Below the pieces are notes generated by a model that was not told the origin of the DNA, did not search any database, and was given only the letters and a program-made list of their open reading frames with translations. Shown piece after piece: positions 47,553 through 51,229 of a stretch of DNA of 64,000 bases; position 1 is the stretch's first letter, and each line of letters begins with the position of its first letter. The DNA is from Hyphomicrobiales bacterium (lineage in GTDB: Bacteria; Pseudomonadota; Alphaproteobacteria; Rhizobiales; Aestuariivirgaceae). A program made the position numbers and the translations under genes. Location: assembly GCA_025359215.1 (NCBI GenBank), contig JANYHE010000066.1, positions 8,539 to 72,538 of the forward strand. The letters run 5' to 3'.

Positions 47553-50264
47553 ATGATGATCGTCGATGTGATGCTGGCTCAACGTCAGAAGGCTTTGGAC
47601 ATTACCCTAGCGGGGCCTCCGCAACGCACTTCCAATCCATTCTTTGGTGTGGGCCCTATCACTGATGGTGCGCTTAACGAAACTGATAGTAAAAATATCC
47701 GGCGTGATTTTGAGCGTTGGATTGGCCAAACCTATCGTAAGTTTGATGATCTGGGTCATGATATAGGCCCCTTCACGGTTGCGGAGCTTGGCCGCTCCAT
47801 GCACCGCGGATATCCCGCTGATAAGGTCATCCTCGATATGATGCGCGAAATTCATCGCTATTTTGGCTTTGCCAAATCCAATCGCATGGCTGTGGGTTTG
47901 GGAGGGGGGCATTCCGGCTTTACAGTTTGCGCCCTGCATCTGATCACCGCGTCAGATTCTAATCAGCATATATTCATTGATACGCCAGAACCAGAATCAG
48001 AAACTGCCAAATCAGGTGGGTTTTTCAGACAGTCGTGGGGTGCACAACTTGTTGAGCTGATGCGCCTAAGCAAAGCAGGCAATGAATCGCGCCTTCATTT
48101 TGCAAACGAAGAGGGCCACATTCCCAGTGCCAAAACGCTTGCGGAAAAGGGGATCAAGCTTTTCTTTGGTGTGGGGCATGAAACAACTGGCGCTACCACC
48201 TATTGCCAATCCGACATTACAAACCTGCTTGAATGGCTGGACTTGAACCCAATGGAACATCATGCCGTTTTGGACGCGACATCAATGTTAGGTGCCATGC
48301 CTTGGGATGACGACACGATTAAAGCGGTTATGGAAAAATGCTGCCTTTTCTCGCCATTCCAAAAAGCCATTGGCGGAATTTCAGGTTATTATATCGCAAA
48401 CTTCACGCCCGCTGCACTCGCCTTGATTGAGGCCAATCAACAGTTTCCCTGCTTTGCGATTCCTCGACAATTAAAATTAGCAACGCCCCTTGATGCCAAG
48501 AAACCCCTTACAGGACAGCGCAGCATCAATATTGGTCCGTTCTATGATCCATTGAAAGACAAGATGTTGGGCGGGGTGATCAACACGTTTTCCACTTTGG
48601 CTTTTGCTGAAACCACTTTCGGCTTGTTGCGCATGGAGCGCATTCTCGGCGACATAAAAACTCTCAATCAACGCTCGCGTGAAAACCGACAGGTGATCGA
48701 CGGTTGGATTGCGCAGAACGATCTTCTAGCGCTGGGTGTGGCCGACGCCTCGCGCCGTGGCACAGCTGTAACACTGCTAAAAATAAATGATCCTGATATT
48801 CAAAGTGTTGAGATCCACGCCCGCATTTTGCAACGCTCTAAGCAGCTGCTTTCTTATGAGGGTATCACTCACCCCAGTGGGGAGCGTGAGGAGGGCTTGG
48901 ATGTGGCGCGTTATGTGAATGCTTTTCCAGGGACACCGGGAGACTACCGGGCTTGGATTGGTGGCATTCGTTCGCCATCAGATGTCATCGCATTGCTCGA
49001 GAATTTAAGATATGCCTATTTGCGCGCCAAGATCGTGGTTCTCGAAGAAGAGCTCTCAAAGCATGACGTGACCTTCAAAGTGCCAGCATTGGAGCGCGCC
49101 GTTAAAGTTCTCATTTGTGATTTGATTGGACTTAAATTTTCTACGGATGGCAAACCAGACCCTTCAGAAGTGAAGACGTATATTGAAGCCAAAGGCGGCG
49201 TATTTCATTTTGAGCCTGCATCTGAAACGGGCGATTACGCCGCTGGCAAAATTCACTTCTTCTATGTTCCCGATCTTTCAACCGAAGCCGAAATTCTGCC
49301 GATTACCAATCGCGGCCAATATGATGCCGTGATTGCAGCAGCAACCGCTTTGCCCAAAGCTTCACTTTTTCAATTGGGGGGCGTGCGAATTGGAGCAGGC
49401 ACTGGTAACATGGGCTCTGCTTCATGGGGAGGCGGCAACGGGGTGGGTGGCGTTGCACCCTTGATGAACACACCCGGATTTAACAGCCGGGCAACTGCGC
49501 AAATGGCTTTCAAAGCCCTGTTGCGCGCGTGGCCTGATTTGCCTGTGCAGGAATTACACAGGCGCAGCATCGCAGGTGAATTTGATACGGGCCGAGATTT
49601 AAAATTGTTTCCGACTGAAAAGCTGGAAGGCAAAGTGATGGCCATTTTGGGTTATGGCAATATCGGTCGCGAGGTGGCGAAGCTGGCACAGGCTTTTGGA
49701 TTGAAAGTCAAAATCTATGCTAGAGCGCACCACCAGTCTCGCATTGAAGGTGACGGTTTTGCCTATGCCGCAACAGCCCAAGCCGCGGCGCAAGATGCAA
49801 ATATTTTGAGTGTTCACACCGGTCTTGGCACGCGCGATAGTTCAAGCCATGTCTTTGCCAATGCAGGAATTGTGAATGCGGATGTTTTAAATGTGATGGC
49901 GGAGAATTCAGTGTTGCTCAATTATGACCGCGGTGAATGTGTCGATACGGAAGGTCTTGATGCGGCCATGGCATCTGGAAAAATTTTGCGCACCGCAATT
50001 GATGCTGATATTTTTAAATCCAGCGATGGCCAATTATCTGGGCCACTGGTTCCCTATTTGCCGCTTGCAGAAAAATATCCGGGTCGCATTGAACTTCTGC
50101 CCCATGCCGCAGCTGATACGGACCATCCCTCACGGGTGGCTGGTGCCAAACAGGCTGTGGACCAGATTATGGATTGCATTCTGAATAACCGTGTCACCAA
50201 TTTAAAAGGTGATCTGCCTCACGGTTATGTGAATGCCGGAGTAAAACTAGGCACCGCCGATTAG
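47553..50264 (+). CDS. 903-aa fusion: SerC-like PLP aminotransferase (aa ~22-495) + D-2-hydroxyacid dehydrogenase (aa ~517-903)
   Basis: N-half: LGRSMHR, LDATS, SPFQK(271)AIGG, INTFS, YRAWIG. C-half: [32 protein letters not shown]. Confidence 0.8.
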
Positions 50265-51203
50265 CACCCCCGTCATAAACACCAGCGCCCCTCCAACAGC
50301 AATTTGCAGTGCTGCTTTAACAAAGGGCGTATCCATATATTTCCAGCGAATCCAAGAAATCACACCCAGCTCAACAATGACTACGGCCACGGCGAGGATA
50401 AAGGCGGCATGAAAATCACTCAGTAAGAACGGGAGCGTGTGGCCGATACCGCCCACCGCTGTCATGATGCCTGATGCAAGACCACGAATAAGAGGATGAC
50501 CACGGCCTGTGAGTTCGCCATCGTCAGAAAGGCCTTCAGCAAGCCCCATTGAAATGCCCGCACCCACCGATGCTGCGACTCCGACGAGAAATGTCTGCCA
50601 CGTGTTGCTGGTGGCAAATGCGGCGGCGAAAATTGGTGCTAAAGTGGAGACGGATCCATCCATCAAACCAACAAGACCGGGCTGCACCACCTGCAACAGA
50701 AACAAGCGGCGCTGGGTTTCATTCTCGTCGATTTTTGCATCTGTTGTTAGGTGTTCAAGACCCAGTTTTGAAGCCAAAGATTCGTGGCCTTTTTCTGCCT
50801 CGGCCAAATCTGTGAGTAGCTTTTTAACCTGAGGATCATCTGAGCGTTCTGCTGCTTGGGTGTAAAATCGATAGTTCTCAAGCTCAATCACCTCAGCGCG
50901 TCTGCGCATAGCATCAATGCCCAGTTTGTTAAGCATCCAAGCAGGTTTATGTTTCACAAAGCCATTAATATCGGCCCGCCTGATCAGCGGAATGTATTCG
51001 CCAAACTTCTTTGCATAGAGCTCCGTCAGGCTGCGGCGGTGTTCATGCTCTTCTTCGGCCATTTCAAAAAACACTTTGGCCGAAGCAGGATAATCGCCAA
51101 TCAAGGCGTGGGCAAAGCCAGCATAGGACCGCGCATCATCGTCTTCACTCGAAATGGCAAGCGCTATAATTTCTTGTTCAGTTAAATCAGAAAACGTTTT
51201 CAA
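50247..51203 (-). CDS. mbfA: membrane-bound ferritin-like iron exporter (erythrin + VIT1/CCC1)
   Basis: [48 protein letters not shown] start at 51203 with GAGG RBS. Confidence 0.93.
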
Positions 51204-51229
51204 GTGGACCTCATGCTGTAAAATCACAC

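Follow-up and report, generated by a model that had tools for sequence, protein, structure and literature searches.

The window analyzed here is a stretch of 64,000 nucleotides from a Hyphomicrobiales bacterium. It carries an uninterrupted reading frame, starting 133 nt after dnaA, whose product joins a class V aminotransferase to a D-2-hydroxyacid dehydrogenase (2HADH). The features on which our analysis relies are the following.

47553-50264, + strand: fusion ORF (aminotransferase + 2HADH), 903 aa
47610-49037, + strand: SerC_2-like class V PLP aminotransferase domain, aa 20-495 (hhalign against the genome's own SerC)
47802-47807, + strand: H84-R85, first substrate His-Arg pair of SerC, retained in 120/120 homologs
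48363-48365, + strand: K271, PLP lysine, invariant and aligned with the SerC lysine
48924-48929, + strand: F458-P459, in place of the second His/Tyr-Arg phosphate pair of SerC (120/120; aligned to Y-R of the genome's own SerC)
49095-50246, + strand: 2HADH domain, aa 515-898 (PF02826, E 4e-21)
49335-49346, + strand: A595-T598, in place of the SerA R-S-x-T phosphate motif according to the alignments (Arg in 0/120 homologs)
49581-49589, + strand: F677-D678-T679, partner-subunit loop (SerA: W-E-R/K; second phosphate Arg gone)
49650-49667, + strand: GYGNIG dinucleotide-binding motif, aa 700-705
49710-49724, + strand: KIYAR, aa 720-724, end of the second beta strand
49719-49724, + strand: A723-R724, NADP-compatible pocket (198/203 close-clade proteins)
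49926-49937, + strand: D792-R793-G794-E795, catalytic Arg with clade-specific acids (D, R and E each 120/120)
50001-50015, + strand: D817-A-D819-I-F821, standing in for D-x-F-x-x-E-P (D817 57/57, D819 56/57)
50103-50117, + strand: H851, catalytic His, and D855 at His+4 (57/57 each)

The fold predicted for the whole protein has a pLDDT of 87, and that of the 2HADH domain one of 94. The N-terminal domain aligns end-to-end with the genome's own SerC (hhalign, 370 columns, 24% identity, E 1e-18). The C-terminal domain displays the two-domain fold with a Rossmann GxGxxG motif that characterizes the 2HADH superfamily, and many solved 2HADHs match its model (Z 26-29, rmsd about 3 Å over about 310 residues); fold searches did not separate the 2HADH subfamilies. 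GYGNIG, KIYAR, Arg793 (in NYDRG), His851 (in LPH) and the loop DIFKSSDG (aa 819-826) lie where the first-pass annotation had placed them.

A C-terminal tail of about 85 residues, found in 990-aa homologs and in stand-alone dehydrogenases, without a Pfam match and not an ACT domain, is absent from the window protein (end at 50247-50264) and from six close relatives. Truncation by a frameshift was rejected, since these six relatives also lack the tail and it is not encoded elsewhere in the genome. A rubrerythrin-VIT1 (MbfA-like) gene (50247-51227) converges on the fusion with an 18-nt overlap, and recurs beside it in several relatives. Our scan for promoters and terminators gave matches at chance level only.

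Cofactor pocket and catalytic residues

Conservation was followed at three depths: the nearest homologs (at least 119 full-length proteins with 64-89% identity to the window protein), a close-clade census of 203 proteins, and a wider alignment of 57 rows with identities as low as 25%. Position 723 is Ala and position 724 is Arg in 119 of 120 homologs each, Ala-Arg closes the second strand in 198 of the 203 census proteins, and none of the 57 rows has Asp at 723. In 2HADHs, the Asp at this strand end accompanies the use of NAD, and its loss that of NADP or of both cofactors (PMC6303947). The closest parallel is the engineered phosphite dehydrogenase E175A/A176R (4E5M), in which Ala-Arg at the same strand end opened the site to NADP and gave dual NAD/NADP use (PMC7238262); unlike the fusion, it is man-made and acts on another substrate. 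The family consensus is A-R-P-R-H, which does not fit the GHRA motif [ST]R[ST]X[RK], and distant members carry G/S-R-S. To judge from these residues, the 2HADH domain very likely accepts NADP(H). The first-pass annotation had gone further and seen here the mark of an NADPH-preferring reductase: compatibility with NADP(H) stands, but preference is not established, because Ala-Arg is not the GHRA fingerprint and the engineered Ala-Arg pocket is dual-specific.

That annotation also deduced that the fusion runs reductively, opposite to serine biosynthesis. Cofactor type alone does not fix the direction of a reaction. However, wild-type 2HADHs that work oxidatively are nearly all NAD+-only (PMC6303947), which favors a reductive role, and we regard this direction as likely. 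The opposite use would be a non-phosphorylated synthesis of serine, from D-glycerate through hydroxypyruvate with NADP+: both steps are reversible in principle, the fused aminotransferase could pull the unfavorable oxidation, and the domain order copies the serC-serA gene order. Besides the cofactor argument, the glycerate kinases described below would pull the other way and canonical SerA and SerC are present, so that we hold this use to be improbable.

Around the active site, the catalytic R793 and H851, the carboxylate-binding Gly loop (G616), N790 (Arg-3) and D817 (Arg+24) are all present. R793 and H851 are kept in 120/120 homologs, and R793, D817, H851 and D855 are invariant in the 57 rows, where D819 occurs in 56. 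The reference 2HADH numbering Arg230/Asp254 sets the canonical Asp at Arg+24 (PMC6303947). By this spacing it corresponds to D817, and not to D819 as the earlier reading of DIFKSSDG had it; D819 is an extra acid, within a two-residue insert (A818-D819) that HMMER and hhalign both place right after D817. The position of the Glu (Arg+29) is then the variable K822 without a gap or the variable S824 with the insert. The other part of the earlier claim holds: judged from the alignments, the catalytic Glu is missing in either register, D-x-D-x-F occurs in 200/203 close-clade proteins, and Glu-Pro appears in the equivalent loop of none of the 203.

A sequencing error or lineage drift was rejected as the cause of the missing Glu, since the same state is found across the 120 homologs and the census. 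Judged on sequence conservation, A723-R724, R793, H851 and the loss of Glu are thus family traits and not drift. The controls were 28 ordinary 2HADH paralogs of related genomes. Glu stands at Arg+29 in 27 of them and Gln in the other, so that loss of Glu with His retained is rare (1/28); the adenosine Asp is absent in 11 of 26 scorable paralogs. Thus the NADP-type pocket is ordinary, and the loss of Glu is the unusual part. In a quick tree, the family forms one side of a branch (support 99) with all 28 controls on the other.

The first-pass annotation had envisaged that another acidic residue might pair with His851. Profile alignments and a dimer model point to Asp819, with D855 as an alternative. 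The model scored 0.87 (best control 0.01; 98% of contacts shared between runs; pLDDT 92), at a mark reached by 20/30 solved pairs and 1/23 single chains, but like dimers are already solved and the pass may merely reproduce known structures. In this model both D819 and H851 are in contact, at low expected error, with T679 from the other chain. D819 and H851 would thus share one neighborhood, indirectly, as a shared contact gives no distance. The equivalent partner loop sits under the catalytic site in PGDH (PMC8081924). It is fairly probable that Asp819 takes over the support of His851 from Glu. PdxB positions its phosphate with a Tyr in the loop after the catalytic His (PMC6303947), and by this analogy D855 would be a substrate-pocket residue that disfavors phosphate. 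The comparison assumes that the PdxB Tyr has the His+4 spacing, equating it with D855. D792 and E795 are further clade-specific acids around R793. The genome's GhrA-like enzyme (L002 2424-3368) also has Asp at His+4, with Glu kept.

Active enzymes with the 2HADH fold and without the catalytic Glu are known, namely SerA type IIIK (Entamoeba, 4NJO) and formate dehydrogenases (PMC6303947). The former has Lys in place of His and the latter has Gln, whereas the fusion keeps His and has its new Asp three to five residues before the Glu position. In the incompletely covered literature, we found neither an active 2HADH that keeps His and substitutes Asp for Glu nor a paper on Glu mutants of D-LDH. One could read the domain as catalytically crippled, or the fusion as a redundant NAD-dependent SerA-SerC: Glu is absent, the best profile matches are PHGDH, and some homologs are named phosphoglycerate dehydrogenase in databases. 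However, the catalytic Arg, His and new Asp residues are kept down to 25% identity (D819 56/57), Glu is dispensable in the two types just cited, the NAD-pocket Asp and the phosphate arginines are lost, and the SerA score is far below its cut-off (60 against 454 bits). We consider this reading highly improbable.

Substrate pockets and family membership

In PGDH the substrate phosphate is bound by two arginines, which PMC6300728 describes as a feature of every PGDH site. Both (human R54 and R135') are absent from the fusion, which has A595/A596 and T679 instead: the SerA R-S-x-T loop has become A-A-A-T and the partner W-E-R/K loop F-D-T. In the aminotransferase half, of the His/Tyr-Arg pairs that bind phosphate in SerC (PMC10049462), the second is replaced by F458-P459 and the first, H84-R85, is retained. 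In plant AGT1, a Tyr-Arg pair at the place of H84-R85 binds plain serine (PMC6797613), so the retained pair is compatible with serine as substrate. R/K681 and R861 are further basic positions of the dehydrogenase domain, and Lys/Arg persists in the SerA phosphate loop of several distant members.

These residues bear on a reversed phosphorylated route, which would lead, after a serine kinase, from phosphoserine through phosphohydroxypyruvate to 3-phosphoglycerate with NADPH. H84-R85 is kept, R/K681 and R861 could supply new cations, the distant members just mentioned retain the basic loop, and downstream of one distant fusion (P0145, 34%) come a small ORF and a gene resembling APH/homoserine kinase. 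On the other hand, the close clade lacks both PGDH phosphate arginines and has Asp at His+4, and glycerate rather than serine is the substrate of the linked kinase. We think it quite unlikely. Conserved ORFs of 93-102 aa directly follow three distant homologs (L032 4069-4350, L031 4285-4575, L215 2177-2485); they resemble one another, have no Pfam match and are unrelated to the C-terminal tail, and in L032 an APH/homoserine-kinase-like gene comes next.

None of the curated family cut-offs was approached, the best score being 60 of 454 bits. The dehydrogenase scored 60.5 of 454 bits with TIGR01327 (SerA), 31-60 bits against cut-offs of 400-490 with the NCBIfam GHRA, GHRB and GHRC models, and 45 of 434 bits with PdxB, from which it differs by A723, A-A-A-T and D855 instead of the NAD Asp, the Arg-Ser motif and the loop Tyr (PMC6303947); it also lacks the PdxB dimerisation domain. 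The aminotransferase scored 41.6 of 448 bits with TIGR01365 (serC_2), of which it has the PLP Lys K271, D241, the carboxylate Arg R466 and the first His-Arg pair but not the second pair. The best sequence-profile matches of the 2HADH domain are PHGDH, and by profile it lies nearer SerA than GhrA/B; the quick tree gives it a long, separate branch of ambiguous placement relative to the SerA clade.

With SerA type I (TIGR01327; human 6CWA/2G76, M. tuberculosis 1YGY), the fusion shares the fold, N-T-P-x-x-N, the catalytic Arg and His, the dimer mode, these best profile matches and the serC-serA order, but not the NAD-selecting Asp, the Glu, the phosphate arginines or the ASB/ACT domains. With GhrA, GhrB and GHRC (HprA) it shares the lack of the adenosine-pocket Asp, the adjoining Arg and probably the reaction. 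By contrast, these enzymes all keep Glu and are not fused to an aminotransferase, and the fusion fits the GHRA motif only in part. Altogether, fold and Arg/His make the domain a member of the superfamily, but it fits none of the described subfamilies against which it was compared; its probable function is that of a hydroxypyruvate reductase.

Genomic context

The host genome keeps a normal serC-serA operon besides the fusion, and canonical SerA is found in 33/35 and SerC_2 in 32/35 carrier genomes. The fusion is thus an extra and not the housekeeping route. This, with the loss of the phosphate ligands, bears out the earlier proposal of a metabolic role other than that of SerAC. The host has three 2HADHs in all. 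No Sga-type aminotransferase is among its top class V matches, the others being PhnW, kynureninase, SerC and probable cysteine desulfurases.

A conserved operon around the fusion was sought and rejected, as neighbors vary between loci; only the nearest relative also has dnaA and the fructose-type ABC genes beside the fusion. The link to glycerate kinase recurs in two forms. P0131 and nine related clusters carry the same dehydrogenase domain (57% identity, same motifs) fused to glycerate 2-kinase; these ten 90%-clusters are one lineage, including Pseudochrobactrum-like sequences. P0131 itself (L089 6001-8460) is an 819-aa dehydrogenase-glycerate 2-kinase fusion upstream of thiM-thiE-thiD-like genes. 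At L057, L141, L143/L157 and L163, a different glycerate kinase, 27-36% identical to the fused one, lies 13-265 nt downstream of the fusion on the same strand. The quick tree requires at least two origins of the kinase-dehydrogenase link.

This adjacency is rare (1/35 genomes, 4/55 metagenome loci) and does not occur in the window. Glycerate kinase is present in 35/35 carriers, but its base rate is 260/301 and co-presence was dismissed as uninformative. The host's own glycerate kinase gene is on another contig (L213 1298-5579), just upstream of genes that are presumably glxB-glxC-glxD-like (N-methylglutamate synthase-like), and that contig also carries a gene for sarcosine oxidase alpha. SHMT and three sets of sarcosine oxidase are encoded in the genome. 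The genome tallies depend in part on kinship and genome size, which confound the count of SoxB (sarcosine oxidase) in 34/35 carriers against 196/301 genomes of the order. Serine dehydratase is found in 25/35 carriers and 143/301 genomes overall, and its presence in these carriers led us to reject the fusion as its replacement. GlxA/GbdR-like regulators, a creatinase-like gene and folate/corrinoid methyltransferase or purU genes lie beside the fusion at L070, L081, L100, L018 and L015.

A possible route from serine to glycerate

The serine cycle and photorespiration use serine:glyoxylate aminotransferase, hydroxypyruvate reductase and glycerate kinase. We propose the same overall route for the fusion, in one chain of SerC_2-like and SerA-like parts, whereas the known enzymes are separate proteins of other subfamilies. 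The protein would work as a dimer, an active 2-oxo-acid reductase that accepts NADP(H) and is joined to the aminotransferase producing its substrate. The PLP domain would pass the amino group of a non-phosphorylated amino acid, most likely L-serine, on to an oxo acid, and the 2HADH domain would reduce the resulting hydroxypyruvate with NADPH to D-glycerate. Arg724 would bind the 2'-phosphate of the cofactor, Arg793 would hold the substrate and His851 give the proton, with Asp819 replacing Glu in supporting His851 and Asp855 lining the distal substrate pocket; the dimer and the nearness of D819 to H851 are modeled. Glycerate 2-kinase would then deliver 2-phosphoglycerate to central metabolism, and the route would drain serine made from glycine and methylated amines.

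We infer substrate and direction, and give this conversion of L-serine through hydroxypyruvate to D-glycerate with NADPH, our best reading, a probability of about 0.5; L-serine/hydroxypyruvate as the substrate is, taken by itself, an even bet. The reading is supported by the catalytic parts conserved over 203 proteins, the coexistence with SerA/SerC, the loss of both PGDH phosphate arginines, the fused and adjacent glycerate 2-kinase, the reverse-order fusion P0260, the small 2HADH complement without Sga-type aminotransferase, and the SoxB count. It is weakened by the rarity of kinase adjacency, the kinase base rate, the dehydratase count, the retained H84-R85 and the varied operons.

The last point concerns stand-alone copies, which sit in varied catabolic operons and so suggest other substrates. 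The same chemistry and direction could serve another unphosphorylated pair, such as 4-hydroxythreonine/erythronate or an oxo acid whose amino group is bound by Asp855; alternatively, the specificity could be broad. Narrow specificity is exceptional in 2HADHs (PMC6303947), and with its four clade-specific acids and R861 the pocket looks tailored. Stand-alone copies have proline racemase/oxidase/aldolase or sugar-acid genes as neighbors, and the MOFRL kinases here are not proven glycerate-only. Against this, glycerate 2-kinase is the only enzyme neighbor recurring both fused and adjacent, and both halves resemble serine-pathway enzymes; we see another pair as possible but rather unlikely. A role with cysteate/sulfolactate seems to deserve little weight, as there is an acid at His+4 and no sulfonate gene was noticed among the recurring neighbors.

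We tentatively suggest, as a bolder reading somewhat less likely than not, that the fusion represents an undescribed 2HADH subfamily of rhizobia and marine bacteria, with His-Asp for His-Glu, and that both halves lost phosphate binding and came to run in reverse, taking serine to glycerate on one chain with NADPH. If so, His-Asp would be a new catalytic arrangement in a well-studied enzyme family, and the fusion a natural example of how changes at the cofactor and substrate sites can reverse a biosynthetic pair of enzymes; hundreds of "phosphoglycerate dehydrogenase" annotations would be corrected, and serine or C1 assimilation would gain a compact candidate module. The proposed chemistry itself is already known. 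What this analysis adds is the corrected register of the Asp, Asp819 as a candidate substitute, the loss of phosphate ligands in both halves, and controls for base rates; in the literature, as incompletely covered, we found no paper describing an aminotransferase-2HADH fusion.

The family also includes stand-alone dehydrogenases of about 470 aa. P0260 is a 1051-aa fusion in reverse order, dehydrogenase first and SerC-like domain second, recognized by motif only. One fusion copy (L080 / G003:C2:52218-54872) has three in-frame stops and is probably a pseudogene. Cultured carriers of the fusion are Labrys, Rhizobium, Mesorhizobium and Gellertiella.
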